DNA of 64,000 nt, from positions 72,878 through 136,877 of the forward strand of contig CAKSEL010000004.1 of assembly GCA_934446675.1 (NCBI GenBank), given 5' to 3'. Position 1 is the first letter of the stretch. Each line of letters starts with the position of its first letter. A program made the position numbers and the translations under genes. The notes under the pieces are model-generated. The model was not told the origin of the DNA, did not search any database, and was given only the letters and a program-made list of their open reading frames with translations. The DNA comes from an uncultured Eubacteriales bacterium (lineage in GTDB: Bacteria > Bacillota > Clostridia > Oscillospirales > CAG-382). This document shows positions 11,249-62,004 of the stretch, piece after piece.

Positions 11249-11300
11249 AAGCATTATTATATAATATATAGGAAGAAAACCGAAAAATCAAACAGATTTA

Positions 11301-11334
11301 CCGGGCGCAGAATATAACGCGTCCGGCTTTTTTT
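11301..11334 (+). terminator. rho-independent terminator
   Basis: CCGGGCGC...GCGTCCGG stem (one G-U pair) followed by CTTTTTTT. Confidence 0.65.
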
Positions 11335-11410
11335 ATGCTTAAAATTACATTTATATATCAGTATCGGGCATAATAATATCAAAAAATGTGTTCGGGAGAA
11401 ACTGAAAAAA

Positions 11411-21328: not shown

Positions 21329-21431
21329 TTTCTTTCTGACCTCCGTGAAACTTTTTATATACAACATTTTAGCAGAACTGCCGCAAATGCAACAGACTGA
21401 ATATCGTGTAAAAAAAGACGAAAATTTCTCA

Positions 21432-21460
21432 TTGTCAAAACGCTTTTTGCATGTTACAAT
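21432..21460 (+). promoter_or_regulatory. promoter candidate for the LuxR-type regulator gene
   Basis: TTGTCA, 17-nt spacer, TACAAT. Confidence 0.45.
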
Positions 21461-21482
21461 ATAAATATACTCCTGAAAGCAG

Positions 21483-22550
21483 GTGATTAAAACGGTATGC
21501 ATTATAACAGAGCCGTCATACGGCAGCAGCATGTGGGGTAAAGTCATGGCGGAATCGTTAAAGGCTCAGCTTAAACAAAAACGTATTCCCTTTGAAGAAA
21601 ATCCGGGTGAGATAAGCACGGACACCGAATGTGTATTTCTTATCGCATCGGACGAAGTATGGATAAAAAACAACATACGGCTCACGGCAGGCGCAGGATT
21701 CAAGACCGTTTTATTATGCAGCCGCCGCACCGAAATTCAGGGATATGTTTACGGCAGCGTCTATTCGGATATTTCGGGCTCGTTAAAGCACATGATTTCA
21801 AAATATTTCATTCCCGGCAAAACAAGGGCGGTACTTTATGCCGTAAACCAAAGTTCGGCGTCGGACACGGGAAAGTTAAACGCTCTGCGCTGCTGCACGG
21901 GAGAATTTTTCGATTCGTTCACGGCTATTCTAAACACAGGATCTCTTAAAAAATGCTTTGAAGAATTTGAGCCTGCGGCGCATAACACCGACCTATGCAT
22001 TGCCTTTAACGATTTTGCGGCAATTTCGCTTGTGCAGAATATAAAGAGAAACTGTCCCGAAGTTTTGGAAAAACTCAAAATTATAAGCTTTGCACAAACG
22101 GAGCTTTCGTCATTTTACAGAAAATATTTTGAAAGCATAGACACAAACTACGAAAGTTTCGGAAAAGCTGCGGTTTTCATATACGAAAAGCTGGGAAAAC
22201 ACCCGTACATGACGGGGATTTCGATAGGCGTCGGCACATATCCCGAAAGTGACGAAAAAAGCGCCGTCAAGGCTGTATGTCCCGACGGCACGACAGGTTC
22301 GGCATCATTCTATTCCGACAGCGAGCTGCACTCTCTTTTGGCAGCCGAATGTTTCCTTAACACAAGCAACGAAACCGACAGGGAGATATTCCGTATGCTG
22401 TGTCACGGCTTTACGCTTGAGCAGACGGCGGAAAAGTGCTTTCTTACGGAAAGCGGCGTAAAATACCGCATAAAAAGGCTGGTTTCGCTGTGCAAAGTCA
22501 AAGGGCGCGACGAGCTTTGCGGGATACTTACACGTTACAATATCTTCTGA
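21483..22550 (+). CDS. transcriptional regulator: periplasmic-binding-protein-like sensor domain plus C-terminal LuxR-type HTH
   Basis: C-terminus REIFRMLCHGFTLEQTAEKCFLTESGVKYRIKRLVSLCKV (LuxR/GerE HTH). The N-terminal beta-alpha pattern resembles a LacI/PBP-type sugar-binding fold. Divergent from the DUF5107/TPR gene. Confidence 0.7.
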   Translation: MIKTVCIITEPSYGSSMWGKVMAESLKAQLKQKRIPFEENPGEISTDTECVFLIASDEVWIKNNIRLTAGAGFKTVLLCSRRTEIQGYVYGSVYSDISGSLKHMISKYFIPGKTRAVLYAVNQSSASDTGKLNALRCCTGEFFDSFTAILNTGSLKKCFEEFEPAAHNTDLCIAFNDFAAISLVQNIKRNCPEVLEKLKIISFAQTELSSFYRKYFESIDTNYESFGKAAVFIYEKLGKHPYMTGISIGVGTYPESDEKSAVKAVCPDGTTGSASFYSDSELHSLLAAECFLNTSNETDREIFRMLCHGFTLEQTAEKCFLTESGVKYRIKRLVSLCKVKGRDELCGILTRYNIF

Positions 22551-23679: not shown

Positions 23680-26625
23680 TTATTTTTTAAGGTATATCTT
23701 ATTGCCCTTTATCTCATACGTATATCCGAAGAGATCTGCATATTCGTCGAGAGATACCGACGGAATTCCGTCCTTGAGATATACGGGACGCGCGAGAGTA
23801 AAGCTTTCTCCGTTCTTTTCGGCGTATGCCTTGCCGACGGTGAATGTCAGCTTATCCTCACCGTGAGTTACTTCAAGTATACCCTCGTCCTTGTGCCATT
23901 CGTAACGGCAGTCTTTAAGAATACCGCTTGACGGATCGAGAGGAACATATATTTTTCCGTTCTTTGTTTCGGGATAATCGCCGAAGAACATCTGCTTTCC
24001 GTCATAATCATATACGGTGGTATGCTCAACGCCTGCAAAGAACGATATGCTCTCTATCTCAAACTCGCCGGGATTTATTGTCGGGTAGAACTTGATGCCG
24101 TTTATTATTCCCGTCCAGCAGGGCTTGGTATCGAGCTGAATTATATGCTGTTCTCTTTCGGTTGACGCTGCCCAATGGTCAAAGCGTGCGTTTATGTCGA
24201 AGTTTTCGCCGTCGTTTGAAGGTATGAATCTCGACAGAGCCGTTCCGCCGCCGGCAGGTTTTCCGGAAATGATTATCTTTGCATAAGCGATATCCGCGCA
24301 GTCAAGTCCGCAGCCGCGAAGCGTCATTGAAGCTTCTCTTTCGGTTGCCTTGCCGACAAGCTTTCCGTCCTTTATCTCGGCTTTATCCATGTTCTCGAAC
24401 GTCCATGCGTCAAGGTCTGCCTTTGTCTTGAACTCAAACTTCTTTACAAGAGTATCGGCCGCAGGGAATGGTCTTGAATCATACTTTGTTCTTGCGAGCT
24501 TTCTTCTCGACTGAACGTGCAGATAGCAGATACGCGAAAGCTGTTCTTCATTCGGAGCTACATTTTCATGCGGAGTATCTGCGCATACCGCTTTTCTTAC
24601 GGCGTCGAGATACCCGAATCCGTTAAGTCCCGACGGCATCATATACGTACCCTCTCCGTACTCGTTCCATGTGGAAAGGTGCAGCATTTTCGACTTCCAA
24701 GAGTTTTTCTCGTATTTCGGAAGTATCTCGTCCATGCAGTACACAAGTCCGTTATACATATCCTGGCACAAAAGGTTGGGACGTCTGTCTCCTCCCCAGC
24801 CTACATTCTTAAATCCTACGCTTACGGTCGGAACTATATGAACCTGATTCATATTTATATTATTGAGATTGCACTCAATGTTCTTTTCGAGCTTATACCC
24901 TTCTCCGCCCCAGTGATATGCGTGGAACGCGTCAAATCCGAGTCTCTTCAGGTCATGCGGATTTGCATGGCAGCCCATTATGATAAGGTCGTCGTAACCG
25001 AGTTTTTTGACCTCATCTCTGAGATACTGAAGTCCCTCTCTTGTATTTGCCTCGCCGCCGAGATCTCTCTCAACGCAGTTTACGCCGAAGCATGACATTA
25101 TTGCCTTATTATCTATGCTTGCATATCTCGGATCGGAGAAGAAGTAGTCTATCCAGTACGGTACAAGATACTTCTTGAATGCCTCAAGTCCGTTCGGGTG
25201 CGCGCAGTTTGCAGCCTCCCACAAAAGCGCAAGCTTCATATTATCGGCATATTTTGCATGGAAATGTCCCTGATGTATCGCATACGAAAGTCCGGTTGAC
25301 TTAAGAGGCGCGTCGGATTCGGAGGAATACCAGCAATAAAGCTCATAGTCAACACCGTGCTCCGCAAGGAACTTTATTTCCCAGTCCGCAGTCTCCGGAA
25401 GTCCCTCGTCATAATATCCAAGAACCGGCTTTACGTCGTCGAACGGCGTTATTGCGTCCCAGCCGAAGTGCGAGCCTTCATGCCAGAGCGAGCAGATATT
25501 CATACCTACGAAATAGTCGCCCTTCTTTTTGGGTATAACGGGCGCCGGAACATAATCTTCGGGTTCGTCGGGCATATTCCAGACGAGTATATCTGTAAAC
25601 ATTGCGTCGGCTGCCTTTTTGCCCTCAAACGAGAACTCAAACGCGTCGGCAAAAGCTGCGGGTTCGTCAAAATCAAGCACCTTTGTCTTTTTGCCGTTGA
25701 GCCATACGAGAACCTTGCCGGTTCTTGTGTCAGCCTCCATTCTCATGGTCTGCCATACGTTTACGTGATGTGAACGTAACATCGTATCGCCGTGCATAAG
25801 CGCGTCGCCGTCGTCATATACCGAAAGCAGGGTATTGCTGCCGTTTTTAAGTTTCAATGTCACTCTGCCGCACTTTGACGGTGTGTGATACTTTATTTCA
25901 AACGCGGTTCTGCCTTCGGATTTTTCAAATACTCTCGAAACGGCAGCGCCGGTATTCTTTGCAGCCTTTATAAAGTAGCAAAGCGCCGTTTTTCCTTCTA
26001 CTCTGTAATCTTTTTCAACCTTTGCGCCGTTTGATGATACAAGGTATTCTTCGGGAAGAGCGCCGGTTATTCCCTGTCTTACAAAGTCGTTTACAAGATA
26101 GTTTACATACAGCTTTGTGAATGCAACGGCACAAGCGCCCATGTCCTTTTTGCCATATCCTATACGTATGCAGGACATATCGAGTCCGGTTCTCTCAAAG
26201 TCATATTCTCCGCGGAACTTATCGTCCACCATGAGTTTTGCTTTACCGATTCTCATATCCATTACGGCTTTGATATATCTTCTTCCGTAGTCAAATCCGC
26301 ACACACCGGTATTTCCGGCATAAAGCACGTTTCCTACGGTGTGCAGATCCAAAAACGCGTCGTCGCGCGAGCCGAAAATTATATGCAGTCCGTCGCCACT
26401 CTTATTATCTATAACACCCTCATATGTGAGCACTCCGCCGTTAAACGCGCGGACGTCTCTGCGGTACAGAACCTCTCCGTCCTTATCGGAATTGAGGAAA
26501 TTCTTGCCGTGCTCCGGACCTTCTCCGTCGCCGAAGTAATCCCAGCCGGAACGAAGTCCTCCCCAACCGTACATATCATTGTCATCAATAAGATAGACAG
26601 CTTCTTTAATTTCTTTATTCATCAT
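23680..26625 (-). CDS. large multidomain protein with central GH99-like/WbsX-like domain and C-terminal copper-amine-oxidase-N-like domain
   Basis: The central ICSLWHEGSHFGWDAITPF..KPVLGYYDEGLPETADWEIKFLAEHGVDYELYCWY resembles the WbsX/GH99-like family (from memory). The C-terminal ~90 aa look like the Clostridial stalk domain. No signal peptide. ATG 26625 has a better-spaced GGGAGAG SD than GTG 26634. Confidence 0.55.
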   Translation of the reverse strand: MMNKEIKEAVYLIDDNDMYGWGGLRSGWDYFGDGEGPEHGKNFLNSDKDGEVLYRRDVRAFNGGVLTYEGVIDNKSGDGLHIIFGSRDDAFLDLHTVGNVLYAGNTGVCGFDYGRRYIKAVMDMRIGKAKLMVDDKFRGEYDFERTGLDMSCIRIGYGKKDMGACAVAFTKLYVNYLVNDFVRQGITGALPEEYLVSSNGAKVEKDYRVEGKTALCYFIKAAKNTGAAVSRVFEKSEGRTAFEIKYHTPSKCGRVTLKLKNGSNTLLSVYDDGDALMHGDTMLRSHHVNVWQTMRMEADTRTGKVLVWLNGKKTKVLDFDEPAAFADAFEFSFEGKKAADAMFTDILVWNMPDEPEDYVPAPVIPKKKGDYFVGMNICSLWHEGSHFGWDAITPFDDVKPVLGYYDEGLPETADWEIKFLAEHGVDYELYCWYSSESDAPLKSTGLSYAIHQGHFHAKYADNMKLALLWEAANCAHPNGLEAFKKYLVPYWIDYFFSDPRYASIDNKAIMSCFGVNCVERDLGGEANTREGLQYLRDEVKKLGYDDLIIMGCHANPHDLKRLGFDAFHAYHWGGEGYKLEKNIECNLNNINMNQVHIVPTVSVGFKNVGWGGDRRPNLLCQDMYNGLVYCMDEILPKYEKNSWKSKMLHLSTWNEYGEGTYMMPSGLNGFGYLDAVRKAVCADTPHENVAPNEEQLSRICYLHVQSRRKLARTKYDSRPFPAADTLVKKFEFKTKADLDAWTFENMDKAEIKDGKLVGKATEREASMTLRGCGLDCADIAYAKIIISGKPAGGGTALSRFIPSNDGENFDINARFDHWAASTEREQHIIQLDTKPCWTGIINGIKFYPTINPGEFEIESISFFAGVEHTTVYDYDGKQMFFGDYPETKNGKIYVPLDPSSGILKDCRYEWHKDEGILEVTHGEDKLTFTVGKAYAEKNGESFTLARPVYLKDGIPSVSLDEYADLFGYTYEIKGNKIYLKK

Positions 26626-26804
26626 TCTAATCACTCTCCCGTTTGATTTTCAGCCTGAATTCGGCTTGAGTTTAGTTAAGTTTAGCAAAAGAGCAAAGGT
26701 TCGTCAAGCGAAAAAGCAAAAAAAAAACCAATTTAAGCCGTCGGCTTGAAAATACTCTCATTTTCTCATTATTTTTCTTAAAAACTCACAATTTAGTTAA
26801 TAAG

Positions 26805-30759: not shown

Positions 30760-30782
30760 ATGCTTAAATTTATAAATCTTAA

Positions 30783-30968
30783 TCTTATCAAGAGCGGCTG
30801 AGGGAACAGGACCGAAGATGCCCGGCAACCTGTCCGAACAAAATCCGGACAAGGTGCTACTTCCTGCATGATACCGGCGTTTGCGAAAACGCGCTGCGGT
30901 TATCATGAAAGATGAGAAGTAAACGACTTCTTCCCTGCTCTGATTTTTTCGGTGCAGGGTGTTTTTTT
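30783..30968 (+). promoter_or_regulatory. SAM-I (S-box) riboswitch with terminator expression platform
   Basis: CTTATCAAGAGCGGCTGAGGGA..GGACC..GAAGATGCCCGGCAACC...GGTGCTACTTCCTGCA...GAAAGATGAGAAG matches the S-box core. The terminator is CCCTGCTCTGA/TCGGTGCAGGG (30933-59) plus a T-run. Located upstream of metK. Confidence 0.9.
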
Positions 30969-30995
30969 CGGCACGGCAAAAGAAAGGAATTCAAA

Positions 30996-32180
30996 ATGAA
31001 AAAAGTATTATTCACATCGGAATCGGTAACGGAAGGACACCCCGACAAGATATGCGACGCCATATCCGACGCGGTGCTTGACGCCATAATCGAAAAGGAT
31101 CCGACGGCACGCGTTGCCTGCGAAACGGCTATAACCACGGGACTTGTACTCGTAACCGGAGAAGTTACGGCAAACTGCTATGTTGACATTCAGGGAATCG
31201 TGCGCGACACGATACGCGAAATAGGATACGACAGAGCAAAATACGGCTTTGACAGCGACACCTGCGCGGTTATCAGCTCAATTCACGAACAGTCTCCCGA
31301 CATCGCTCTCGGCGTTGACAAATCGCTTGAAGCAAAAGAGGGCGATACCGACAAGTATGACACCGGCGCCGGCGACCAGGGACTTATCTTCGGATATGCC
31401 TGCAACGAAACCAAGGAGCTTATGCCGCTCCCCATCTCTCTTGCGCACAAGCTCGCAAAACGCCTTACCGAGGTCAGAAAGAACGGCACTCTGCCTTATC
31501 TGCGTCCCGACGGAAAAACTCAGGTTACGGTTGAGTACACAGACGGAAAACCGTCAAGAGTCGACGCGGTTGTCGTTTCCTCTCAGCATGATCCCAAAGC
31601 CGAACTTGCGGCTATCAGACGCGACATCATAAGAGAAGTTATCCGTCCCGTAATTCCCGAAGAACTGCTCGACGAAAACACAAGATTCTTTATCAACCCG
31701 ACGGGACGTTTTGTAATAGGCGGTCCCAACGGCGACACCGGTCTTACCGGAAGAAAGATCATTGTCGATACATACGGCGGATATGCGCGTCACGGCGGCG
31801 GAGCATTCTCCGGAAAAGACCCGACAAAGGTTGACAGAAGTGCTGCATATGCCGCAAGATACGTTGCGAAAAACATTGTTGCGGCAGGTCTTGCGGACAA
31901 GTGCGAGGTTCAGATAGCATACGCGATAGGCGTTGCACACCCGATCTCGGTTCTGGTTGACACCTTCGAAACGGCAAAAGCCGACGAGGAAAAAATTTCA
32001 AAGGCTGTTTACAAGTGCTTCGATCTTCGTCCGGCTGCCATAATCGAAATGCTCGACCTCAGAAAGCCTATCTACAAGCAGCTCTCGGCTTACGGTCATC
32101 TCGGCAGAGAAGAACTCGGTGTTACATGGGAAAAAACCGACCGCGCAGAGGCTCTCAAAAAGGCGGTTGCGGAACTTTAA
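30996..32180 (+). CDS. metK: S-adenosylmethionine synthetase
   Basis: [64 protein letters not shown] 30996 follows AAAGAAAGGAA; the track start 30912 lies inside the riboswitch. Confidence 0.97.
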
Positions 32181-50081: not shown

Positions 50082-51086
50082 ATGAAACGCATAACTCTTT
50101 CGGACATTGCAAAAATGACCGGATATTCAATAAACACCGTTTCCCATGCTCTCAACGACAAAAACGACATTTCGGAAAAAACCAAAGCCGAAATAAAAAA
50201 AGCCGCGGTAAGTCTCGGATATATAGGCAATTCCTCCGCAAGCTTTTTGAGAAGCGGAAAAAGCCGCGCCGTCGCGGTAATAATTCCCGACATTGCAAAT
50301 CCGCACTTCTCGATAATGATTAAGGAAATGCAGCTTGCTTTGAGAAATGCAGGCTACACAGCCGTTGTTTTCAACACCGACGAGGACGAAAAAAACGAAA
50401 CAGACGCTATTATGACCTCTCTCCGGCAGAACGTTGACGGAATTATAATCTGTCCCGTGCAGAAAACCGTGGATAACATCGAATATCTCGAAAAATGCGG
50501 CGTTCCCTTTGTGCTTATAGGCAGATGTTTTGACAAAAACAAGCACAGCTACGTTGTATGCGACAACAAAAACGGCGGATTTCTGGCAGGCAAAGAGGCT
50601 ATCCGCGTAAGCTGCGGAAAACCCGTGCTGTTTCTCAACGCAAGCTCATTTATTACGACCTCGCGCGAACGTCTTGACGGCATAAAGCAAGCTTTTGAGG
50701 TTTCGGGCATACCTCTTTCAAATCTCAGAGTACACGAGGTTTCCCCAATGCTGTCCGACGGCGGAGATATTGCAAAGATACTTTCGGACGCAAAAAATTA
50801 CGGCGCCGTCATATGCTTTTCGGACCTGCTTGCAATGAAAGTCTGTATGCTGCTGCGCGGTATGTCTCTTGAAATACCCAAAGACATAAGCGTTATAGGC
50901 TTTGACGACATTGTTTCAAAATTCGCGCTGCCCATAATGCTAAGTTCGGTTTCTTCGTCGAAAACTCTTATGTCATCAAAGGCGGTCGAGTTCCTTTTTG
51001 AGCTTATCGGCGGCAAAAAAGCCGAAAATTTGCGTGCAGTTCTCCCGACCGAGCTTGTAAGACGCGAAACCACAAAAAATATCTGA
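50082..51086 (+). CDS. LacI-family transcriptional regulator
   Basis: N-terminal HTH MKRITLSDIAKMTGYSINTVSHALND, followed by a PBP-type sugar-binding domain (AVAVIIPDIANPHFS). Confidence 0.9.
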   Translation: MKRITLSDIAKMTGYSINTVSHALNDKNDISEKTKAEIKKAAVSLGYIGNSSASFLRSGKSRAVAVIIPDIANPHFSIMIKEMQLALRNAGYTAVVFNTDEDEKNETDAIMTSLRQNVDGIIICPVQKTVDNIEYLEKCGVPFVLIGRCFDKNKHSYVVCDNKNGGFLAGKEAIRVSCGKPVLFLNASSFITTSRERLDGIKQAFEVSGIPLSNLRVHEVSPMLSDGGDIAKILSDAKNYGAVICFSDLLAMKVCMLLRGMSLEIPKDISVIGFDDIVSKFALPIMLSSVSSSKTLMSSKAVEFLFELIGGKKAENLRAVLPTELVRRETTKNI

Positions 51087-51097
51087 ACAAATTTCAC

Positions 51098-51124
51098 GGC
51101 GGCTATTGACATTCCGCCTTTTTT
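51098..51124 (+). terminator. terminator after the LacI gene (overlaps the next promoter)
   Basis: GGCGG-ctattgacatt-CCGCC followed by TTTTTT. Confidence 0.5.
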
Positions 51125-51134
51125 GTGGCACAAT
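51106..51134 (+). promoter_or_regulatory. promoter candidate of the GRE operon
   Basis: TTGACA (51106-11), 17-nt spacer, CACAAT (51129-34) preceded by TGG. Confidence 0.5.
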
Positions 51135-51136
51135 AT

Positions 51137-51150
51137 CATTAACGTTAATG
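51137..51150. promoter_or_regulatory. perfect 14-bp palindrome with central CG: LacI/GalR-type operator
   Basis: CATTAACGTTAATG lies immediately downstream of the -10 and 22 nt upstream of the GRE start codon. Confidence 0.6.
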
Positions 51151-51172: not shown

Positions 51173-53143
51173 ATGACAGACAGATTATACAACTTCGTAC
51201 TTCACAAAGAGCATCACAAATACAGAACCGACGCCAAAATAAGCATTGATTATTCCGCAAGCCCGATTGAGCGCATGACAAGCAGATTTGAGCAGATGTG
51301 CGCACTCCAGACGCCGGTCATACTTCCCGACGAGCAGATCGTTCTTATAAGAACGACAAAAGATCTTCCGGACATAATGACGGAACAGGAGTGGGTGGAA
51401 ATAGAGAAAACGCATTTCAGGCACGAACTCGGATATATGTCGAACCTTTCGCCCGACTACGGCAGAATTATCTCGACAGGGCTTTCCGAGTGCGCAAAGA
51501 CCGCCGACGAATACGGAAAAAGAGAAATTGCGGCAATTATCTCGCTTTGCAAAAGATACCGTGATTTTGCGCGCAAAAACGGACGGGACGATGTTGCGGA
51601 CATACTCGGAAACGTACCCGAAAAACCGGCAAAAAGCTTTCGCGAGGCGCTTCAGTTTTTCAGAATAATACACTTTGCGCTCTGGCTCGAAGGAAACTAT
51701 CATGTTACCGTCGGACGCTTTGACAAATATATGTACCCCTATTTCAAAGCCGACCTTGACAGCGGCGTTCTCACCAAAACCGAAGCGTTTGAGCTGTTAT
51801 GCGACTTTTTCCTCTCTTTCAACAAGGACAGCGACATGTATCCCGGCGTTCAGCAGGGCGACAACGGTCAGAGCATGGTTCTCGGAGGCACGGACGAAAA
51901 CGGAAACGAGGTTTTCAGCGAGCTCAGCGCCATGTGTCTTGAGGCAAGCGGCAGACTGCTCATGATAGATCCGAAAATAAATCTGAGAGTAAACTCAAAA
52001 ACGCCGGACGAGGTATACATAAGAGCAAGCACGCTTACAAAAGCAGGACTCGGATTTCCGCAGTATTCCAACGACGACGTGGTTATCCCGGCTCTCGAAA
52101 AAATGGGATACGACAAAAAGGACGCGGCAAACTATGTTGTTGCGGCTTGCTGGGAGTTTATAATACCCGGAATCGGCGCGGATATTGCAAACATCGCCGC
52201 CCTCTCTTTCCCGAAAGTAATAGACGTCTGTCTGCACAGGGATCTTGAAAAATGCAAAGACTTTGACGAATTTTTAAGCTGCGTTAAAAAGCAGATACAC
52301 GACGAATGCGAAAATATCTGCGGCAGCATAAAAAAGCCCTGGTTCGTACCCTCTCCGTTTATGAACGTCTGCATGGACGTAAACATATACGAGGGCGGAA
52401 AATACAACAATTACGGTATTCACGGCACCGGCATTTCAACGGCTGCGGACTCGCTGTCGGCAATCAAAAAATATGTCTTTGACGAAAAGAGCATAAGCGC
52501 AAAAGAGCTTATCAGCGCAGTTGACGGCGACTTCAAAAATACGCCCGAACTTCTTGCAAAATTAAGATACGAAACTCCCAAAATGGGCAGCGACGACGAC
52601 ACTGCGGACGGTTTCGGAACAATGCTTCTCGACGAATTTTCGGCAAGTCTTTCCGGAAAGAAAAATTCACGCGGAGGAATATACCGCGCAGGCACCGGAA
52701 GCGCTATGTTCTATCTCTGGCACGCGGACGAAATAGGCGCGTCGCCCGACGGCAGACGCAAAGGCGAACCCTTTGCGGCAAACTTCTCTCCGAGCCTGTT
52801 TGCAAAGACGTCCGGACCTTTCGGAATTATCAAATCCTTTTCAAAGCAGCACTTTATAAACGCCGCAAACGGCGGTCCGCTCACGCTTGAATTTCACAGC
52901 AGTATGTTTGACGGCGACGACGGCATAAAGAAAGTCGCAATGCTGGTAAAGGCTTACATGGCTCTCGGCGGCGAACAGTTACAGCTGAACGCGGTAAATC
53001 TCGAAACGCTCAAAGACGCCAAGATCCACCCCGAAAACCACCGTCAGCTCGTGGTCAGAATATGGGGCTGGAGCGCATATTTCGTCGAGCTTGACGAGAG
53101 ATACCAGAACCACGTTATGAAACGCTGCGAATACAAGCTATGA
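51173..53143 (+). CDS. glycyl radical enzyme, PFL2/dehydratase-like family, unusually compact (656 aa)
   Basis: C-terminal glycyl loop VVRIWGWSAYFVEL (Gly about residue 632), ASPDGRRKGEPFAANFSPS, Cys loop VVAACWEFIIPG (Cys about 326, C-x-E pattern), QQGDNGQSMVLGG. GGAGG SD. Confidence 0.85.
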   Translation: MTDRLYNFVLHKEHHKYRTDAKISIDYSASPIERMTSRFEQMCALQTPVILPDEQIVLIRTTKDLPDIMTEQEWVEIEKTHFRHELGYMSNLSPDYGRIISTGLSECAKTADEYGKREIAAIISLCKRYRDFARKNGRDDVADILGNVPEKPAKSFREALQFFRIIHFALWLEGNYHVTVGRFDKYMYPYFKADLDSGVLTKTEAFELLCDFFLSFNKDSDMYPGVQQGDNGQSMVLGGTDENGNEVFSELSAMCLEASGRLLMIDPKINLRVNSKTPDEVYIRASTLTKAGLGFPQYSNDDVVIPALEKMGYDKKDAANYVVAACWEFIIPGIGADIANIAALSFPKVIDVCLHRDLEKCKDFDEFLSCVKKQIHDECENICGSIKKPWFVPSPFMNVCMDVNIYEGGKYNNYGIHGTGISTAADSLSAIKKYVFDEKSISAKELISAVDGDFKNTPELLAKLRYETPKMGSDDDTADGFGTMLLDEFSASLSGKKNSRGGIYRAGTGSAMFYLWHADEIGASPDGRRKGEPFAANFSPSLFAKTSGPFGIIKSFSKQHFINAANGGPLTLEFHSSMFDGDDGIKKVAMLVKAYMALGGEQLQLNAVNLETLKDAKIHPENHRQLVVRIWGWSAYFVELDERYQNHVMKRCEYKL

Positions 53144-53928
53144 CAGGCACGGTTTTTGACATAAAAGAGGGTGCGGTACACGACGGTCCGGGACTTCGCA
53201 CCACGGTATTCTTAAAAGGGTGTCCTTTAAGGTGCGTCTGGTGCCACAATCCCGAAGGTCTGTCAAAAGAACCGCAGCTTATGGTAAAGCAAAACCTGTG
53301 CGTCGGCTGCGGAACCTGCCGCAAAGGCTGCAGCCACCCGGAATGTGCGCCGTTTTCGCGCTGCGTTCACGCCTGTCCCAACGGCTGTCTTTCGGTAAGC
53401 GGAAAAGAGTACACGTCCGAAGAACTGTGTTCGGAACTTTCAAAAAACCGCCTGTTCTTTCAGATGTCGGACGGCGGAGTAACGTTTTCCGGCGGAGAAC
53501 CGTTATTTCAGGGCGGATTTTTACTCGAATGTCTCGATATTCTGCAAAAGGACGGTATAAACACCGCGATAGAAACAAGCGGTTACTGCGATGCGGACTT
53601 ATTCGGAAAGGTTTGCGACAAATGCGGCTTTATAATTATGGACATAAAGCTTTTTGACAGAGATACGCACAAGAAATACACCGGCGTTTACAACGACGCG
53701 GTTCTCGACAATGCGAAGTTTCTTATGAACTGCGGCAAGCCGTTTCTGTTCCGCACTCCGCTTATTCCGCACATAACCGACACAAAAGAAAATCTCTGCA
53801 AAATACGGGACTTTATAAAAGACTCTCCTTGGGAGAAACTAAAATACAACGACATGGCAGATCTTAAATACAAAATGCTCGGAATGGAATATCCTTACGG
53901 CAGCATGGAGGTAAAAAATGAAAATTAA
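53140..53928 (+). CDS. glycyl-radical enzyme activating protein (radical SAM)
   Basis: CPLRCVWCHNPE radical-SAM cluster motif, extra ferredoxin-like Cys clusters (CVGCGTCRKGC; CVHACPNGC), GGVTFSGGEPL. ATGA overlap with the GRE stop. Confidence 0.9.
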   Translation: MTGTVFDIKEGAVHDGPGLRTTVFLKGCPLRCVWCHNPEGLSKEPQLMVKQNLCVGCGTCRKGCSHPECAPFSRCVHACPNGCLSVSGKEYTSEELCSELSKNRLFFQMSDGGVTFSGGEPLFQGGFLLECLDILQKDGINTAIETSGYCDADLFGKVCDKCGFIIMDIKLFDRDTHKKYTGVYNDAVLDNAKFLMNCGKPFLFRTPLIPHITDTKENLCKIRDFIKDSPWEKLKYNDMADLKYKMLGMEYPYGSMEVKNEN

Positions 53929-55828
53929 CGCGCAAATGTACAATGCAGACGGCGCACTGCCCTGCGCTTTTGAAGAAAAATCAATTTCAAACGGAGTAAC
54001 AGCCGTAACGGTAAGTGCCAAAAGCGCCGCGGCTCTTGACGCTTTATGTGCGGTGAAGCTAAGTCTTATACCCGACAACGCTTTTTCCGAATACACCTCG
54101 GTATACCGCCATTCCGAGTATTGGTGCAGACCGCAGTTCGGAAACGACCTTTCTTCAATTCCCGACGAAACGCAGACGCTTATACTCAAAAACTCCGACG
54201 GCAGCTATACCGTAATTCTACCGGTTGTTTCTGAGCTTTACAGGTGCGTTATAGAGTCCGGAAAGACAAAAAACGAGTTCTGTGCGCGTCTGTTTACATA
54301 TGCCGACGGTTTAACCGAGTGCAATGCCCTTTCTTTGGTATACAAGACGGGAGATAATCCGTTTTCCGTCATGCACGACTGCGTAAACGCCGCGATAAAG
54401 CAGCTCGGAAACAAAATACTTCCGGCAGAACAAAGAAAATATCCCGAAATATTTGAATATCTCGGCTGGTGCAGCTGGGACGCGCTGCACATTGAAGTAA
54501 ACGAAAAAGGCTTACTCGAAAAGTGCAGAGAATTCAAAGAAAAGAACCTTCCCGTCCGCTGGGCGATACTCGACGATATGTGGGCAGACGTTCCGAACTT
54601 CAAAAACCATACATACTCGGATTTCGGCGAGATGATAAAGCTCATGCACTCAAGCTCTCTGCGCTCCATGGAGGCTGATCCCGAAAGATTTCCCGACGGT
54701 CTTAAACATACCGTTACCGAGATGAAAAAATACCTCACGTGGATAGGTATGTGGCACCCGACGACCGGGTACTGGTTCGGAATTGAACCCGGCAGCAAAC
54801 TTTTTGAAAAGTACAAAGAGCATCTTTACAAAACCGCGGACGGCAGATACATATTAAAACCGGATTACGAAAGCTATCACGCGTTTCTCGATGAGTGGCA
54901 CGCTTTCTTCAGGGACTGCGGCGCAGACTTTGTAAAGGTTGACAATCAGAGCATTATAAGGCGGTTTTACAAGCACACGCGCCCGATAGGCGAAATTGCA
55001 CACGATATGCACGCGGCAATAGAACAGTCAACTCAAAAGCATTTTGGCGGTGCGCTCATCAACTGCATGGGCTGTGCAAACGACAACATCTGGAACAGAC
55101 CGTCAAGCGCCGTTTCACGCTGTTCCGACGACTTTCAGCCAAACAACCGCGAATGGTTCACAAAGCACATTCTTCAGTGCTCCTTTGCGTCGTTCATGCA
55201 GAGAGACATTATCACCTGCGACTGGGATATGTGGTGGACAAACGATCCTCAGGGTATCAAAAACAGCGTCATACGTGCGGTTTCGGGCGGTCCGATATAC
55301 ATAAGCGACGAGATAGGAAAGAGCGAGCGAAACGTAATTATGCCGCTCATACTCTCCGACGGAAAAATACTCCGCTGCGACAAACCAGCCGTTCCGACTG
55401 CCGACTGTCTGACAGGCAATCCCGAAACAAACGGCAGAATTTTCAAGCTTCAGAACACGGCAAAAGGCAGCGGTGTGCTTGCGGTATTCAACATTGACGC
55501 ATCAGACTGCGCGGCGCACGGCAGCATAAGCCCAGACGACATTGACGGACTCTGCGGAGAAGAATTTGCGGTATACGAGCACTTCACAAAGCAGGCGTTC
55601 ACCGTGAAAAAAGGTCAGAGAATACCTCTTACTCTCGAAACACGCGACAATTTCAGGCTGTACAACTTTGTACCTATCAAGGACGGCTTTGCCGCACTCG
55701 GAGATGTCAGCAAGTTCATATGTCCTCTCACCGTAAAGAGCGCGGACAAAAATTCCGGTGCCGAAACGCTCGAACACACCGACTGCCTTATCTTTAAGGA
55801 CGGTAAATTCGAGGCGGTAAAGGCATAA
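53918..55828 (+). CDS. GH36-clan raffinose-synthase/Sip1-like glycosidase or transglycosidase
   Basis: YLGWCSWDALHIEV, WAILDDMW, GADFVKVDNQ (nucleophile-Asp motif) and RCSDDFQPN (acid/base motif), as in plant raffinose synthase/Sip1 and GH36. 11-nt overlap with the activase gene. No signal peptide. Confidence 0.75.
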   Translation: MKINAQMYNADGALPCAFEEKSISNGVTAVTVSAKSAAALDALCAVKLSLIPDNAFSEYTSVYRHSEYWCRPQFGNDLSSIPDETQTLILKNSDGSYTVILPVVSELYRCVIESGKTKNEFCARLFTYADGLTECNALSLVYKTGDNPFSVMHDCVNAAIKQLGNKILPAEQRKYPEIFEYLGWCSWDALHIEVNEKGLLEKCREFKEKNLPVRWAILDDMWADVPNFKNHTYSDFGEMIKLMHSSSLRSMEADPERFPDGLKHTVTEMKKYLTWIGMWHPTTGYWFGIEPGSKLFEKYKEHLYKTADGRYILKPDYESYHAFLDEWHAFFRDCGADFVKVDNQSIIRRFYKHTRPIGEIAHDMHAAIEQSTQKHFGGALINCMGCANDNIWNRPSSAVSRCSDDFQPNNREWFTKHILQCSFASFMQRDIITCDWDMWWTNDPQGIKNSVIRAVSGGPIYISDEIGKSERNVIMPLILSDGKILRCDKPAVPTADCLTGNPETNGRIFKLQNTAKGSGVLAVFNIDASDCAAHGSISPDDIDGLCGEEFAVYEHFTKQAFTVKKGQRIPLTLETRDNFRLYNFVPIKDGFAALGDVSKFICPLTVKSADKNSGAETLEHTDCLIFKDGKFEAVKA

Positions 55829-55839: not shown

Positions 55840-55872
55840 GCACGTCTTTTTACATAAAGGACGTGCTTTTTT
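55840..55872. terminator. bidirectional terminator (GRE operon / MATE gene)
   Basis: GCACGTC (55840-46) pairs with GACGTGC (55860-66), then TTTTTTAT. Confidence 0.7.
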
Positions 55873-57289
55873 ATTTTACGGCACTCTCCTTTTCGGCTTT
55901 TGACAGGCTTTTGCACACGCCGAATATCACGGCAGCGGAAATAATAAACGTAAGCGTATCGGCAACAGGCATAAAATAAAGAATTCCGTAAAGTCCGAAA
56001 CAAACCGGCAGCACAAGCACAAGTCCGACGCCGAACACTATTTCACGAAGCAGCGACAGCAGCGCCGATTCCCATGCCTTTCCTATCGACTGCAAAAATA
56101 TAAACGTACCCTTATTCACCATAGCAAACGCCGTCATGCACATAAACAGCCTTATGCATTTCAGCGCAAATTCATTATAGTAAACGCTCTCGTGCGCCGC
56201 ACCGAATATATTGATAAAAAACTGCGGAAAGCACAAAAACACCAACGCGGCAGCAAATCCAACAGCTGCCTGAATCGCGGTAAGATACAAAAGCAGCTTT
56301 TTTACGCGCGAATATCTGCACGCGCCCATATTATACCCTGCAACCGGTATGCAGCCTGCCGAAAGCCCGACGGATACGGATATTACTATCTGAAAGAACT
56401 TCATTACTATGCCTATTACCGCAGTCGGAATATGCGCATACATTTCTTTTCCGAAGATCTCATCTCTTGCTCCGTATTTGCGGCACATATTGAGTACAGC
56501 CGCCATTGTAAACACTATCGACACCTGTGAAAGAAAGCTTGTAAAGCCGAGAGAAAGTATTTTCTTTACGCAGTAAAAATCAGGCTTAAAGCACTCACGG
56601 CTAAGCTTTACCGATTTAAAGAAAAACACGTAATACAGCGAAAATGCCGCCGATATTATCTGTCCGATTACGGTTGCAACCGCGGCTCCCGTCATTCCCA
56701 TATGAAAAGTATAGATAAACAGCGGATCAAGCACACAGTTTGCCGCAGCTCCGCAAAGCAGCGACACCATTGCAAAACGCGGACTTCCGTCGGAACGTAT
56801 TATCGGGTTCAGTGCCTGACCGAACATATAGAACGGTATGCCGAGGCTTATCCAAAAGAAATATTCCTTTGACAAAGCATATGTTTCGGCGTTTACCTGC
56901 GCCCCGAACGCGCAAAGAATTCCGTCTGCGAACACAAGATATACAGCCGTCACTACAATGCCCGAAAGCACCGTCATAACAAGCGCGTTTCCTATACTTT
57001 TGGCAGCACTTTCGTCCTGTCTTGCGCCGAGAGTCATGCTGAAAAATGCACTTGTTCCGTCGCCTGTCATTGTGGCGACAGCCAGGGCTATTACCGTCAT
57101 TGGAAAGACGACCGAATTTGCCGCGTTTCCGTATGATCCGAGATATTCGGCGTTTGCTATATATATCTGATCCACGATATTATACAGCGCGCCCACAAGC
57201 AGCGATATTATACACGGCAGGGAATATTTACATATAAGCTTTCCGAGCTTTTGGGTTTCAAGATACCTGTTTTGTGCGGTATTTGTCAT
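55871..57289 (-). CDS. MATE-family efflux transporter
   Basis: 12-TM protein. N-terminus KLGKLICKYSLPCIISLLVGALYNIVDQIYI is typical of MATE/NorM. AAGGAGG upstream of ATG 57289. Confidence 0.9.
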   Translation of the reverse strand: MTNTAQNRYLETQKLGKLICKYSLPCIISLLVGALYNIVDQIYIANAEYLGSYGNAANSVVFPMTVIALAVATMTGDGTSAFFSMTLGARQDESAAKSIGNALVMTVLSGIVVTAVYLVFADGILCAFGAQVNAETYALSKEYFFWISLGIPFYMFGQALNPIIRSDGSPRFAMVSLLCGAAANCVLDPLFIYTFHMGMTGAAVATVIGQIISAAFSLYYVFFFKSVKLSRECFKPDFYCVKKILSLGFTSFLSQVSIVFTMAAVLNMCRKYGARDEIFGKEMYAHIPTAVIGIVMKFFQIVISVSVGLSAGCIPVAGYNMGACRYSRVKKLLLYLTAIQAAVGFAAALVFLCFPQFFINIFGAAHESVYYNEFALKCIRLFMCMTAFAMVNKGTFIFLQSIGKAWESALLSLLREIVFGVGLVLVLPVCFGLYGILYFMPVADTLTFIISAAVIFGVCKSLSKAEKESAVK

Positions 57290-59325: not shown

Positions 59326-60765
59326 GTGAAATTGTACGATACGGCGATAATCGGTGCCGGGGTAATCGGTTCAATGATTGCAAGAGAGCTTTCGCGCTAC
59401 GATCTTAAAGTATGCGTTCTCGAAAAGCAGAACGACGCCGCGTGCGGAGCCACCAAAGCAAACTCCGCGATAGTCCATGCCGGCTTTGACGCAAAGCCCG
59501 GAACGCTCAAAGCAAAGCTCAATGTTTTGGGTTCCGAACTTATGGAACAGACCGCAAAAGAACTCGGTGTAAAATACAAAAACAACGGCGCGCTTGTTAT
59601 AGGCTTCAACGACAGTGATTACGAAAAGATTTCAAAGCTTTACGAACAGGGCTTAAAAAACGGCGTAAAAAATTTAAGAATTATAAACTCGGACGAGCTT
59701 CACAAGCTTGAGCCAAAGCTTTCCGAAAAGGCAGTCTGCGCTCTTTACGCGCCCACAAGCTCTATCGTATGTCCTTATGAGCTTTGCATTGCGGCTCTCG
59801 GAAACGCCATGGACAACGGCACGGAGTTTATAAGAAACTTCGAGGTTAAGTCAATCGAAAAGAAAAACGGCTGCTACGAAATAAAATCCGAAAATTCGAG
59901 CGTCTGTGCAAAATACGTAGTAAACGCCGCAGGTCTGTATGCCGACAGCATTGCAAACATGGTATCCTCCTGCGGATTTACCATTCACCCGCGCCGCGGA
60001 GAATACATTCTTCTCGACAAGGAATGCGGAGATCTCACCGAGCGCACAATATTCAGAACGCCGACCGACAAGGGCAAAGGAATTCTTCTCTCCCCGACCG
60101 TTGACGGCAACTTCTTAACAGGTCCTACCGCAACAGACTGCGAAGACAAGTCGGACAAGAGCACGACCAATTCGGGGCTTCTTCTTGTCATGTCGCAGGC
60201 ACGCGAAAATCTGCCCGGAATTCCTTTCGGCAAGACTATCACCTCTTTCTGCGGTCTGCGCGCCGTAGGAAGCACCGGAGATTTTATAATAAACGCCGCA
60301 AACGACAACTTTATAAACGTTGCCGGAATAGAATCCCCCGGACTTTCCGCGTCTCCGGCAATAGCAAAATACGTTGCCGATATGCTGGCGCAGCACGGAC
60401 TTGAACTCACGCCGAAAAAAGACTTTAATCCCATAAGAAAGCCGAGCCATTATTTCAGAGAGGCGTCAATAGAAGAAAAAAATGAAGTCATAAAGAAAGA
60501 TCCCTCATACGGCAGAATTATTTGCCGCTGTGAGGGTATCAGTGAAGGCGAGATAAAAGCCGCGATACACGAAAATCCGGGCGCTGTCGATCTTGACGGC
60601 ATTAAGCGCAGAACGCGTGCAGGCATGGGCAGATGTCAGAGCGGTTTCTGTCTGCCGTATACGGCGGAAATTCTTGCGCGCGAGCTTAATATTCCGTTTG
60701 AAAGCGTTACAAAGTCCGGCGGAGATTCAAAAATTGTCCTCGGCAAGACAAAGGAGGATAAGTAA
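59326..60765 (+). CDS. FAD-dependent glycerol-3-phosphate dehydrogenase/oxidase-like protein with BFD-like [2Fe-2S] domain
   Basis: YDTAIIGAGVIGSMIARELS FAD fold and C-terminal CRCEGISEGEIKAAI (BFD-like). The start may be TTG 59332, since its SD spacing is better than for GTG 59326. Confidence 0.85.
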   Translation: MKLYDTAIIGAGVIGSMIARELSRYDLKVCVLEKQNDAACGATKANSAIVHAGFDAKPGTLKAKLNVLGSELMEQTAKELGVKYKNNGALVIGFNDSDYEKISKLYEQGLKNGVKNLRIINSDELHKLEPKLSEKAVCALYAPTSSIVCPYELCIAALGNAMDNGTEFIRNFEVKSIEKKNGCYEIKSENSSVCAKYVVNAAGLYADSIANMVSSCGFTIHPRRGEYILLDKECGDLTERTIFRTPTDKGKGILLSPTVDGNFLTGPTATDCEDKSDKSTTNSGLLLVMSQARENLPGIPFGKTITSFCGLRAVGSTGDFIINAANDNFINVAGIESPGLSASPAIAKYVADMLAQHGLELTPKKDFNPIRKPSHYFREASIEEKNEVIKKDPSYGRIICRCEGISEGEIKAAIHENPGAVDLDGIKRRTRAGMGRCQSGFCLPYTAEILARELNIPFESVTKSGGDSKIVLGKTKEDK

Positions 60766-62004
60766 ATGACTGAGCTTGTTATAATAGGCGGCGGCCCTGC
60801 CGGAATGAGCGCCGCGGCTGCGGCATACGAAAGCGGTATCCGCGACATTCTTATCCTGGAGCGCGACGAACGTCTCGGCGGCATTTTAAGGCAGTGCATA
60901 CACAACGGTTTCGGACTTCACAAGTTCGGACAAGAGCTTACGGGACCTGAATACGCGTACAGGTACGAATGTAAGATGGAAGAATACGGTATTCCCGTAA
61001 AGCTTGACACCATGGTTCTCGACATAACGCACGACAAGGTTATTACCGCCGTAAACAAACACGACGGGGTATTTCAGATACAGGCAAAGGCAATTATACT
61101 CGCAATGGGCTGCCGCGAACGTTCAAAAGGCGCGCTGAATATTGCGGGCAGCCGTCCGGCAGGCATTTACAGTGCCGGAACCGCGCAGAAGCTTGTTAAC
61201 ATGAAAGGTTTTATGCCGGGCAAAGACGTGGTTATCCTGGGTTCGGGCGACATAGGTCTTATAATGGCGCGCAGAATGACGCTTGAGGGCGCAAAGGTTC
61301 ATGCGGTCTGCGAACTTATGCCGTATTCCGGCGGTCTTGCACGCAACATAGAACAGTGTTTACACGACTTTGACATTCCGCTTATGCTCAGCCACACCGT
61401 AACTAAAATTCACGGCAAAGACCGTCTTGAAGGCGTGACCATAAGCAAGGTTGACGAAAACAGGCGTCCCGTTCCGGGCAGCGGAGAGTACATTGCCTGC
61501 GATACGCTTTTGCTTTCCGTCGGTCTTATTCCCGAAAACGAGCTTACAAAAAAAGCCGACATTGATCTCGACAGAATAACCAACGGCGCGGAGGTTGACG
61601 AAAACAGACAGACATCGGCAGAGGGTATTTTTGCGTGCGGCAATGTGCTTCACGTCCACGACCTTGTGGATTTTGTGTCTGACGAGGCTGAAATTGCCGG
61701 AAAAGCCGCTGCGGAATACATCAGAAACGGCGGAACAGCCGCTGAAAACTGCGTTCGCGTCACAACCGACGGCAAGGTGCGCTACACCGTTCCGCAGAAG
61801 ATAACCTGCACAAAGGATACCGACGTTTTCTTCAGGGTAAGCGACGTATTCAAGAACGTAAAAGTCGTTATCAAAAACGGCGGCGAGGTAATTTTCTCAA
61901 AGAAACTGAAAAAGGCAGCGCCCGGTGAAATGAACCGTATTACTCTTAAAAAGGAAATTCTGAGCGGCGTCGGGCAGTTAAGTTTCGGACTGGAGGAAGC
62001 ATGA
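60766..62004 (+). CDS. NAD(P)/FAD-dependent pyridine-nucleotide-disulfide-type oxidoreductase
   Basis: LVIIGGGPAGMSAA, VVILGSGDIGLIMA, GIFACGNV. Abuts the upstream stop codon. Confidence 0.85.
   Translation: MTELVIIGGGPAGMSAAAAAYESGIRDILILERDERLGGILRQCIHNGFGLHKFGQELTGPEYAYRYECKMEEYGIPVKLDTMVLDITHDKVITAVNKHDGVFQIQAKAIILAMGCRERSKGALNIAGSRPAGIYSAGTAQKLVNMKGFMPGKDVVILGSGDIGLIMARRMTLEGAKVHAVCELMPYSGGLARNIEQCLHDFDIPLMLSHTVTKIHGKDRLEGVTISKVDENRRPVPGSGEYIACDTLLLSVGLIPENELTKKADIDLDRITNGAEVDENRQTSAEGIFACGNVLHVHDLVDFVSDEAEIAGKAAAEYIRNGGTAAENCVRVTTDGKVRYTVPQKITCTKDTDVFFRVSDVFKNVKVVIKNGGEVIFSKKLKKAAPGEMNRITLKKEILSGVGQLSFGLEEA

Follow-up and report, generated by a model that had tools for sequence, protein, structure and literature searches.

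What does a glycyl radical enzyme (GRE) do when it is far shorter than the canonical members of its family and carries a tryptophan on each side of its radical glycine? The question is raised by a gene at 51173..53143 (+) of a 64,000-nucleotide stretch of DNA, called the window here, which spans positions 72,878 to 136,877 of contig CAKSEL010000004.1 from an uncultured Eubacteriales bacterium (GCA_934446675.1). Comparison of its product with sequences, structures and gene neighborhoods from other genomes places it in a clade of compact GREs recognizable by a Trp-Gly-Trp (W-G-W) glycyl loop. As to function, we regard the chances as about even that the enzyme is a Cys-x-Glu (C-x-E) radical enzyme cleaving a C-O bond in a free, probably galacto-configured monosaccharide.

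An intact gene in a family of compact enzymes

The open reading frame (ORF) listing and our own translation agree on 656 aa, with the loop cysteine at 326 and the radical glycine at 632, just as an earlier reading of the DNA from its letters alone (the sequence-only reading) had counted. The sole eliminase-type C-x-E lies at Cys326 (AACWEF, NYVVAACWEFIIPG), and W-G-W holds Gly632 (RIWGWSAYF, QLVVRIWGWSAYFVEL). The catalytic loop Cys326-Trp327-Glu328, encoded at 52148..52156 (+), aligns with Cys433-Val434-Glu435 of glycerol dehydratase (GD) and with the C-V-E of PflD, and it is invariant in the family. Its earlier assignment to the eliminase/isomerase type, and not to the Cys-Cys (CC) type of pyruvate formate-lyase (PFL), therefore stands. 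The glycyl radical motif R629-I-W-G632-W-S-A-Y-F637 is encoded at 53057..53083 (+). Pfam assigns residues 536-638 to Gly_radical, at 66 bits against a cut-off of 22, and residues 104-509 to PFL-like, over positions 202-638 of the 647 of that profile, some 200 profile positions being represented by only the first ~100 residues of the protein. The C-terminus, R629-I-W-G-W-SAYFVE-L-DERY-Q-NH-V-MK-R651, matches the published GRE fingerprint RVxG[FWY]x6-8[FL]x4Qx2[IV]x2R, which holds the radical Gly (quoted in PMC13450708), except that the second residue is Ile and not Val.

The short length is not a start-codon artefact, because the gene has its own ribosome-binding site (RBS), a GGAGG 7 nt 5' of the ATG, and in-frame stop codons upstream. 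It is also shared by the close homologs: the best 120 clusters at 90% identity (64-98% identical) all measure 634-677 aa, so that truncation relative to them, a possibility raised by the sequence-only reading, is seen in none. The glycyl loop reads RIWGWSAYF in 117 of these clusters and RVWGWSAYF in the other 3, and a 50-sequence alignment shows no variation at C326, W327, E328, W631, G632 or W633. Conservation of this kind indicates that the W-G-W and Cys-loop features are under selection and not the product of chance.

A close relative is encoded in at least 166 GTDB species genomes, 80 of which were kept for locus comparison. Nearly all of the 80 are metagenome-assembled genomes (MAGs) of gut or rumen Clostridia (Acutalibacteraceae, Oscillospiraceae, Lachnospiraceae), and two come from cultured organisms, Ructibacterium gallinarum DSM 107454 and 'Bacterium 1xD8-48'. 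The exact window protein is present on 9 public contigs, and the nearest genome (96% identity), an uncultured Ruminococcus sp. MAG, has the same gene order. Judged from sequence, the window gene is an intact, selected and full-length member of a large, uncharacterized clade of compact PFL-like GREs.

That the gene is truncated, mis-started or a pseudogene, or that it encodes a plain PFL, has next to no probability. Such explanations would account for a length about 135 aa below that of canonical GREs and for the database name 'pyruvate formate-lyase'. Mis-start, pseudogene and truncation are ruled out by the upstream stops, the RBS, the family-wide length and the internal position of the deletions described below. 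PFL is ruled out by the single Cys in place of CC and by TIGR01255, where the protein reaches 75 bits and 994 are required; the match to E. coli PFL structures is confined to the C-terminal third and scores only 61 bits. The HypD, CutC, HpsG/HpfG, IAD, HPAD, PFL and PflD equivalogs were rejected as well, every score falling 3-13 times under its cut-off.

In the cultured R. gallinarum DSM 107454, the system is duplicated: locus L072 (about 5000-12750) carries tandem pairs of compact GRE and activase, of 668 and 297 aa and then of 649 and 271 aa, followed by a gene resembling those of glycoside hydrolase (GH) family 36.

The W-G-W clade and its signature residues

Relatives were searched among 1.84 billion 50%-identity representatives. 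The nearest, of 640-710 aa, have a Gly loop of RVWGWSGYF or RIWGWSAYF and VAACWEFIIPG as their Cys loop; they are followed by proteins of 637-765 aa with RVWGF, and canonical RVAGY enzymes of ~790 aa are reached only at about 290 bits. All W-G-W sequences form a single clade in a neighbor-joining (NJ) tree. The sequence-only reading had suggested checking whether W-G-W defines a clade, and tree and motif table show that it does, the clade being of 641-709 aa and spread over several phyla. A clade profile recovered 7064 of 8000 scored candidates at E<=1e-50, the best 120 listed measuring 674-710 aa. The same reading had allowed that motif and length might be common in a known family, and this applies in part: the family is common, with thousands of proteins, but it is unnamed, uncharacterized and automatically labeled 'pyruvate formate-lyase'. 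Wider-clade members of 685-692 aa occur in Bacillota (e.g., Biomaibacter acetigenes), Lentisphaerota and Bacteroidota, and one from Bacteroidota adjoins SusC/D.

Several traits are shared by the window GRE and 10 of 10 divergent W-G-W representatives, namely R[IV]WGWS[AG]YF, VAACWE[FYL], an Asn at the site of GD His164, the motifs GDNGQ, DPKINLR and NGGPxT, and a length of 641-709 aa. Over 13 clade representatives that are merely 35-43% identical, the invariant residues are N91, D230, G232, Q233, D266, K268, N270, Q297, C326-W-E, R505, G507, G509, T571 and W-G-W, and His177 and Asn340 are nearly so. The resulting signature strings are G-D230-N-G-Q233, D266-P-K-I-N270-L-R, R505-x-G-x-G509-x-A and N-G-G-P-x-T571.

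The multiple sequence alignment (MSA) comprised 10 W-G-W, 12 W-G-F and 15 canonical (781-811 aa) representatives. In it the codon of Asn91, at 51443..51445 (+), falls on the conserved-His site of canonical eliminases (GD His164, on the 'GHxxPDY' strand), which is Asn in 10/10 W-G-W and His in 15/15 canonical proteins (residues 155-165). GD His164 has been proposed as the general acid (PMC13450708). Alignment to GD, as opposed to coordinates, further places Gly232 at Tyr339, Gly509 at Tyr640, Asn340 at Asp447 and Trp327 at Val434. These assignments indicate a remodeled, very polar pocket.

The substitutions bear on an unlikely alternative, in which the enzyme would be a GD-type or propanediol dehydratase (PD)-type diol/polyol dehydratase acting on the aglycone or small polyol freed by an alpha-galactosidase, for instance glycerol from galactosylglycerol, or myo-inositol or pinitol from galactinol or galactosyl cyclitols. 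GD and PD head both the sequence matches (1r8w, 280 bits) and the fold matches (Foldseek ranks 1-4), the C-x-E motif is present, and enzymes of the GH36/Sip1 type, one of which is encoded downstream, are generally known to hydrolyze galactosyl polyols. Nevertheless, the GD pocket is lost at four positions (His164, Tyr339, Asp447 and Tyr640, now Asn91, Gly232, Asn340 and Gly509), and the window GRE fails the subfamily cut-off of TIGR01774 (327.1 bits against 678.2), aligning only over profile positions 227-786. The gene neighborhoods, taken up below, also argue against this dehydratase.

The sequence-only reading regarded the whole W-G-W as atypical, which proved correct for one Trp of the two. 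Because a Trp after the radical Gly is already found in Archaeoglobus fulgidus PFL2 (RVAGWSAYF) and permitted by the [FWY] of the fingerprint, Trp631 is the truly unusual residue; the six solved GREs in which the motif was read all have Ala there. Across 105 representatives, in counts uncorrected for shared ancestry, Trp at Gly-1 is accompanied by Trp at Cys+1 in 44/54 sequences as against 5/51 otherwise (Fisher p = 3e-14) and by Asn91 in 42/54, His being present in 49/51 of the others. The median length is 690 aa with Trp at Gly-1 and 788 aa without it. The Gly and Cys loops of GREs meet at the barrel center (PMC13450708), and for this reason Trp631 and Trp327 look like a co-evolved packing pair at the meeting point of the two finger loops.

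A second, broader set of unnamed GREs (P0151-P0270, 637-765 aa) has RVWGF and Cys loops such as TSACWEPLIPG, NDGCSELLVQG and CGGCWETTVPG. Most of those aligned carry Asn at the His164 site, and they represent further uncharacterized groups of compact GREs.

Internal deletions and predicted fold

Residues were counted between anchors of the MSA. Relative to the 15 canonical proteins, the window GRE has ~108 fewer residues before the Cys and ~27 fewer after it. The earlier estimate of roughly 100 residues missing ahead of the Cys was thus sound as arithmetic, but not as the loss of an N-terminus, since the protein keeps its N-terminal helices and beta1, and the losses are internal. The largest deletion separates beta1 from beta2 (30 aa against a canonical median of 87 aa, a difference of -57). 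Relative to the same medians, the part before and through beta1 is ~14 aa shorter, three inter-anchor segments after beta2 are shorter by 20, 12 and 5 aa, and 27 aa are lacking after the Cys loop; from residue ~418 to the C-terminus the spacing is identical. The alignment thus identifies the ~135 "missing" residues as internal deletions and not as an absent N-terminus. Given that the N-terminal helices form the conserved dimer interface of GREs and that the loop after beta1 contributes to the substrate channel of benzylsuccinate synthase (BSS; PMC13450708), loss of the beta1-beta2 excursion may alter access to the active site or oligomerization.

An AlphaFold2 model built from the 50-sequence alignment reached a mean predicted local distance difference test score (pLDDT) of 84.1 and a predicted TM-score (pTM) of 0.87. 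The strands of the first half-barrel are predicted at about 62-63, 92, 177-181, 234-238 and 268-273, and those of the second at 338-345, 414-419, 503-507, 570-575 and 602-608. An extra strand (297-300) is predicted just ahead of the Cys loop, and strands 322-323 and 329-330 around Cys326 are placed between the two half-barrels. Helices at 96-108, after beta2, occupy the place expected of the cap helix, and both finger hairpins are predicted, that of the Gly loop at 627-636. The ten-stranded beta/alpha barrel thus appears complete in the model in spite of the short chain, a point that the sequence-only reading had suggested checking. Foldseek matched the model to GD, PD, CutC, PflD and HypD, among others, in the PDB with query-normalized TM-scores (TMq) of 0.77-0.83, target-normalized TM-scores (TMt) of 0.61-0.71 and 21-25% identity, and no closer solved relative was found in that search. 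Residues 511-527 and 539-542 (nt about 52703-52798) fall below a pLDDT of 50, yet their sequence (GASPDGRRKGEP...) is family-invariant; the 511-542 region may be an active-site loop that is mobile or that becomes ordered only upon substrate binding.

Since the loop after beta1 is part of the BSS channel, its deletion may open the site, which would suit a radical 1,2-eliminase that cleaves ethers or glycosides, so that an O-methyl sugar would lose methanol and a hydrolase-resistant glycoside its aglycone. Such an enzyme, which we consider improbable, would parallel the chemistry of CutC and PflD, in which a ketyl radical expels a neighboring leaving group (PMC13450708). Loss of the general-acid His could fit a different leaving group, and the gene is found in varied loci of carbohydrate-active enzymes (CAZymes). 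The proposal is nonetheless wholly inferential and has no specific contextual marker, and the mutarotase and monosaccharide importers encoded near related GREs suggest that a free reducing monosaccharide reaches the cytoplasm.

Operon organization and regulation

The GRE gene heads a three-gene operon that also encodes an activase and a GH36-like hydrolase. The GRE-activating radical SAM enzyme (262 aa, 53140..53928, +) has a start codon overlapping the GRE stop (ATGA) and scores 257.7 bits against the TIGR02494 cut-off of 174.35. Its C28-x3-C32-x2-C35 motif (CX3CX2C) is 100% conserved, and Cys 54, 57, 60, 64, 69, 75 and 79, which are 95-96% conserved, are consistent with auxiliary clusters. 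An activase adjoins the GRE in about 72/80 species loci. The third gene (53918..55828, +), which overlaps that of the activase by 11 nt, encodes a 636-aa GH36-type alpha-galactosidase-like protein of the Raffinose_syn/Sip1 family (Pfam PF05691, 3.4e-70). Its closest solved protein is Arabidopsis RS6 (7exf), and it keeps the motifs GWC(S/T)WDA, VKVD and SDDF, the last two of which presumably carry the nucleophile and the acid/base. The overlaps suggest that the genes of the operon are probably translationally coupled. A hairpin resembling an intrinsic terminator, with an 11-bp stem followed by a T-run (TTTTTTATTT), lies 12 nt past the GH36-like stop (55840..55876, +). Rfam returned no match at the GRE locus.

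Upstream, a LacI-family transcriptional regulator of 334 aa (50082..51086, +; Pfam LacI HTH, Peripla_BP_1/3/4) is the probable repressor of the operon; it passed no NCBIfam equivalog, the best, RbsR, giving 190 bits where 382 are required. A sigma-70-like promoter is predicted at 51106..51134 (+), composed of TTGACA, a 17-nt spacer and (TG)CACAAT, with 10/12 consensus positions and an extended -10 TG. It is a consensus match only, one of 4 such sites in the 6.2-kb region scanned as against 6.5 expected in shuffles. Between its -10 element and the RBS, a perfect 14-bp palindrome of the LacI operator type, CATTAACGTTAATG, is read directly at 51137..51150 (no strand assigned), and its 12-bp core, ATTAACGTTAAT, has a single match within the window. 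A LacI gene is found directly upstream of the GRE in 14/80 species loci. The box ATTAACG(A/T)TAAT (with at most 1 mismatch) lies 29-56 nt 5' of the GRE start in 11/11 LacI-linked loci of other species and is absent from 12/12 GRE loci that lack LacI. The comparative evidence is good and points to direct control of the GRE by a sugar-type repressor.

Some loci depart from this arrangement. Two contigs encode an identical GRE (P0065), one of which (L083, in comparison with L082) lacks the downstream activase gene and has WYL, HTH and DUF5906 genes in its place. The replacement looks like a mobile-element insertion, and the activase may have been lost naturally. In L014, L033, L053, L065, L070 and L071 the GRE-activase pair directly adjoins a second, shorter activase. 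In L033, L053, L065 and L070 this is followed by NrdD and a thioredoxin-reductase-like gene, so that two glycyl-radical systems share one locus; we judge the proximity of the compact GRE to NrdD to be lineage synteny. A candidate for an accessory or downstream enzyme is a DUF4867 protein of about 216 aa, whose gene immediately adjoins the GRE/activase pair in L010, L022, L044, L059 and 2 wider-clade loci and in L022 lies between the two.

Genomic context across species

In the subclade of the window, the single nearest non-activase gene on each side was recorded for the 80 species loci. Expressed as raw counts without a background control, these neighbors are AraC-type regulators (19), Raffinose_syn (15), LacI (11), SGNH esterases (9), GH31 (6), NrdD (5), GH51 (3-4) and GH127 (3). 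Raffinose_syn proteins are encoded within 8 kb of the GRE in 23/80 loci, and GH127, GH43, GH78, GH94, GH123 and Melibiase genes are also found near subclade GREs. For the wider clade, the two nearest genes on each side were taken in 50 dereplicated metagenome and genome loci, and on the same raw basis yielded major facilitator superfamily (MFS) Sugar_tr transporters (8), CUT2-type sugar ATP-binding cassette (ABC) components (7), LacI (5), Melibiase, Aldose_epim and Raffinose_syn (4 each), and GH127 and GH51 (3 each). On long contigs, an aldose 1-epimerase and an MFS sugar transporter recur beside the activase-GRE pair in varying order, the epimerase coming after the GRE in one contig; arabinofuranosidases (GH51, GH127, GH43) and/or Melibiase join them, and an AraC regulator is present on three of the four contigs. 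NrdD/NrdG/TrxB, Met-tRNA ligase, TatD, SpoIVB and asparagine synthase were also recurrent neighbors and were set aside as coincidental, the product of lineage synteny.

MFS Sugar_tr and CUT2 ABC systems are monosaccharide importers, and the substrates of mutarotases are free reducing sugars. L-arabinose is freed by GH51, GH43 and GH127 enzymes and D-galactose by those of GH36 and GH27, some GH36 and GH27 members being beta-L-arabinopyranosidases. L-arabinopyranose and D-galactopyranose have a common ring configuration. The title of PMC4598101 names a GH27 example of a beta-L-arabinopyranosidase.

This context returns us to the polyol dehydratase. Aldehyde/alcohol dehydrogenase and microcompartment genes are absent from every locus context read, and the aldose 1-epimerase and monosaccharide transporters of the clade indicate a reducing sugar, not a polyol. 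The context also bears on a second alternative, which strikes us as quite unlikely, namely a PflD/YbiW-like isomerase whose substrate would be a sugar derivative bearing a phosphate or another negative charge, such as an anhydro-sugar phosphate, a sulfated sugar or a sugar acid. In its favor, PflD is the second-best PDB sequence match (245 bits), the basic residues R60, K268 and R505 are invariant in the clade, HAD phosphatase genes adjoin the GRE in about 5 loci, and sulfatase genes are found in one. On the other side, the window GRE scores 272.9 bits against the NF007437 cut-off of 1109, its pocket segments differ from those of PflD in the alignment, no phosphotransferase system (PTS) or kinase family is among the 25 commonest GRE neighbor families, and the nearby transporters are of neutral-monosaccharide types.

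Proposed function and mechanism

The preferred reading, C-O cleavage in a free monosaccharide, builds on the C-x-E motif, which is common to all GRE eliminases and isomerases, and on the precedent set by PflD/YbiW for cleavage of a sugar C-O bond by a GRE (PMC13450708). The activase would abstract the pro-S hydrogen of Gly632, and the glycyl radical so formed would generate a thiyl radical on Cys326. At a substrate carbon that bears a hydroxyl, the thiyl radical would take a hydrogen and Glu328 would deprotonate the hydroxyl to give a ketyl radical, after which an adjacent C-O bond would break. The outcome would be either a dehydration (1,2-elimination) or a ring-opening isomerization similar to that of PflD/YbiW, which would convert an aldopyranose into a ketose, and Cys326 would hand the hydrogen back to finish the cycle. 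The substrate would be a free, unphosphorylated monosaccharide, most likely galacto-configured (D-galactose and/or L-arabinose) and freed by the neighboring glycosidase; in other members of the clade, monosaccharide transporters would bring it in and aldose 1-epimerase would anomerize it. Removal of the beta1-beta2 excursion, together with the Tyr-to-Gly changes, may enlarge and open the active site, making room for a ligand the size of a pyranose and held by strong hydrogen bonding. The same Gly residues and the polar residues of the signature would produce a larger pocket suited to hydrogen bonds.

Several observations weigh against a neutral monosaccharide as substrate, or against the steps that lead to it. 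First, no kinase, aldolase, dehydrogenase or microcompartment shell gene recurs around the 80 and 50 loci, and the neighbor frequencies are modest (4-23 of 50-80 loci) in genomes that are rich in CAZymes anyway. Second, the three invariant basic residues and the HAD phosphatases could reflect an anionic substrate (phosphate, carboxylate or sulfate). Third, metal-dependent pathways for arabinose and galactose already exist, which leaves the need for a radical enzyme unexplained, and because the general-acid His is missing, a GD-type dehydration mechanism is not simply transferable. Finally, the alignment-based pocket assignments are accompanied by low model confidence over loop 511-542, and shared ancestry could contribute to the co-variation counts.

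The further proposal that the W-G-W clade is the first GRE family whose direct substrate is an ordinary aldose without a phosphate, namely L-arabinose and/or D-galactose, is tentative, and we would rather expect it to fail than to hold. If true, pentoses and hexoses would enter catabolism by a hitherto unknown radical route, through dehydration to a deoxy-keto or deoxy-lactone sugar or through radical ring opening of an aldose to a ketose, and anaerobes of several phyla in gut, rumen and sediment would use this route widely. The catalyst would be a pared-down GRE scaffold, one that does without the beta1-beta2 excursion and the general-acid His and has its Gly/Cys radical-transfer core rebuilt around a Trp pair.

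Significance

The discovery of GREs, which are sensitive to oxygen, has repeatedly revealed new anaerobic metabolism of relevance to the gut, including the conversion of choline to trimethylamine, the use of hydroxyproline, the formation of H2S from isethionate, and anhydroglycolysis. The W-G-W clade is worth pursuing in this respect, being large, phylogenetically broad, common in gut and rumen Clostridia and tied to the breakdown of plant glycans. Assigning its reaction would correct the 'pyruvate formate-lyase' label, a systematic misannotation that inflates predicted formate production, and would add a node to models of fiber fermentation. The clade also amounts to a natural 'minimal' GRE, devoid of a segment that includes the post-beta1 channel loop and with Trp in place of the small residue before Gly. 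This Trp bears on how activases recognize Gly loops and could aid GRE engineering. With the conserved operator and the cultured R. gallinarum DSM 107454, the question lends itself to direct experiment.

Other features of the window

A SAM riboswitch (RF00162, 68 bits) at 30782-30918 (+) directly precedes an S-adenosylmethionine synthetase ORF (30912-32180, +). The true start of the synthetase is probably further downstream, because the listed ORF start overlaps the aptamer. At 59326-62004 (+), 3.5 kb past the operon, an oxidoreductase pair is encoded, composed of an FAD-dependent protein (DAO and BFD [2Fe-2S]) and a Pyr_redox_2 protein. It resembles a pair of the anaerobic glycerol-3-phosphate dehydrogenase type. 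The ORFs at 18086-21547 (-) and 23680-26634 (-) encode large proteins with DUF5107 and TPR domains and with WbsX-like and Cu_amine_oxidN1 domains. A WbsX/Cu_amine_oxidN1 protein is also encoded near the GRE in L082 and L083.

Comparison with known systems

The closest characterized systems are GD of Clostridium butyricum (1r8w) and PD of Roseburia inulinivorans (5i2g), the best matches by sequence (280 bits) and by structure (Foldseek E 3e-39, TMq about 0.8). Like them, the window GRE has a Gly radical domain, a Cys loop with C-x-E, a GA(S/T)PDGR loop and the motifs R-F-D and PxxxND, and it is served by a dedicated activase that carries Cys motifs for auxiliary clusters. It differs from them in being only about 25% identical, 131 residues shorter and devoid of the beta1-beta2 excursion, and in its substitutions (His164 to Asn, Tyr339 and Tyr640 to Gly, Asp447 to Asn, Val434 to Trp, and Ala before Gly to Trp). 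Its clade also lacks their dehydrogenase or microcompartment context.

PflD and YbiW (8yjo, 8id0, 8id7) resemble the window GRE in their C-x-E chemistry, their role in carbohydrate catabolism and their fold (TMq 0.80-0.83), but they are 22-24% identical and about 765-810 aa long, and their NF007437 cut-off was missed. Their substrates are phosphorylated and PTS-linked, unlike the setting of the W-G-W clade, which sits with MFS or ABC monosaccharide importers and a mutarotase. They isomerize 1,5-anhydrohexitol 6-phosphates and are the only characterized GREs known to cleave a sugar-ring C-O bond (PMC13450708).

CutC and HypD/HpyG/HpzG/HplG belong to the same fold class (TMq about 0.8) and have C-x-E. 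Unlike the window GRE, they are about 785-850 aa long, have Ala before the radical Gly and use amine or amino acid substrates, and the scores of the window GRE against CutC- and HypD-type equivalogs are far under the cut-offs. A. fulgidus PFL2 (2f3o), which is uncharacterized too and of debated function, shares the Trp right after the radical Gly but is 776 aa long and 23% identical, with Ala before that Gly.

The unnamed metagenomic RVWGF GREs (637-765 aa) have the Trp before the radical Gly, and in most of them C-W-E, the Asn at the His164 site and a short beta1-beta2 link are found as well. They differ from the window GRE in the Phe after Gly and, for example, in Leu/Phe at 508-509 and Asp at 571, and they form separate branches of the NJ tree, likewise uncharacterized.

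The GREs known to date comprise six C-O, one C-N and three C-S eliminases and three isomerases, among which no compact family has been described, and entire GRE clades remain unvalidated (PMC13450708, June 2026). For the W-G-W clade, no paper was found in the literature searched by Gly-loop motif and keyword, and in searches of NCBIfam and the PDB no curated cut-off was passed by the GRE and no solved structure of the clade was found. Set against these systems, the W-G-W enzymes are an uncharacterized clade of GREs, distinctive in architecture and linked to carbohydrates, and not a new category of system.

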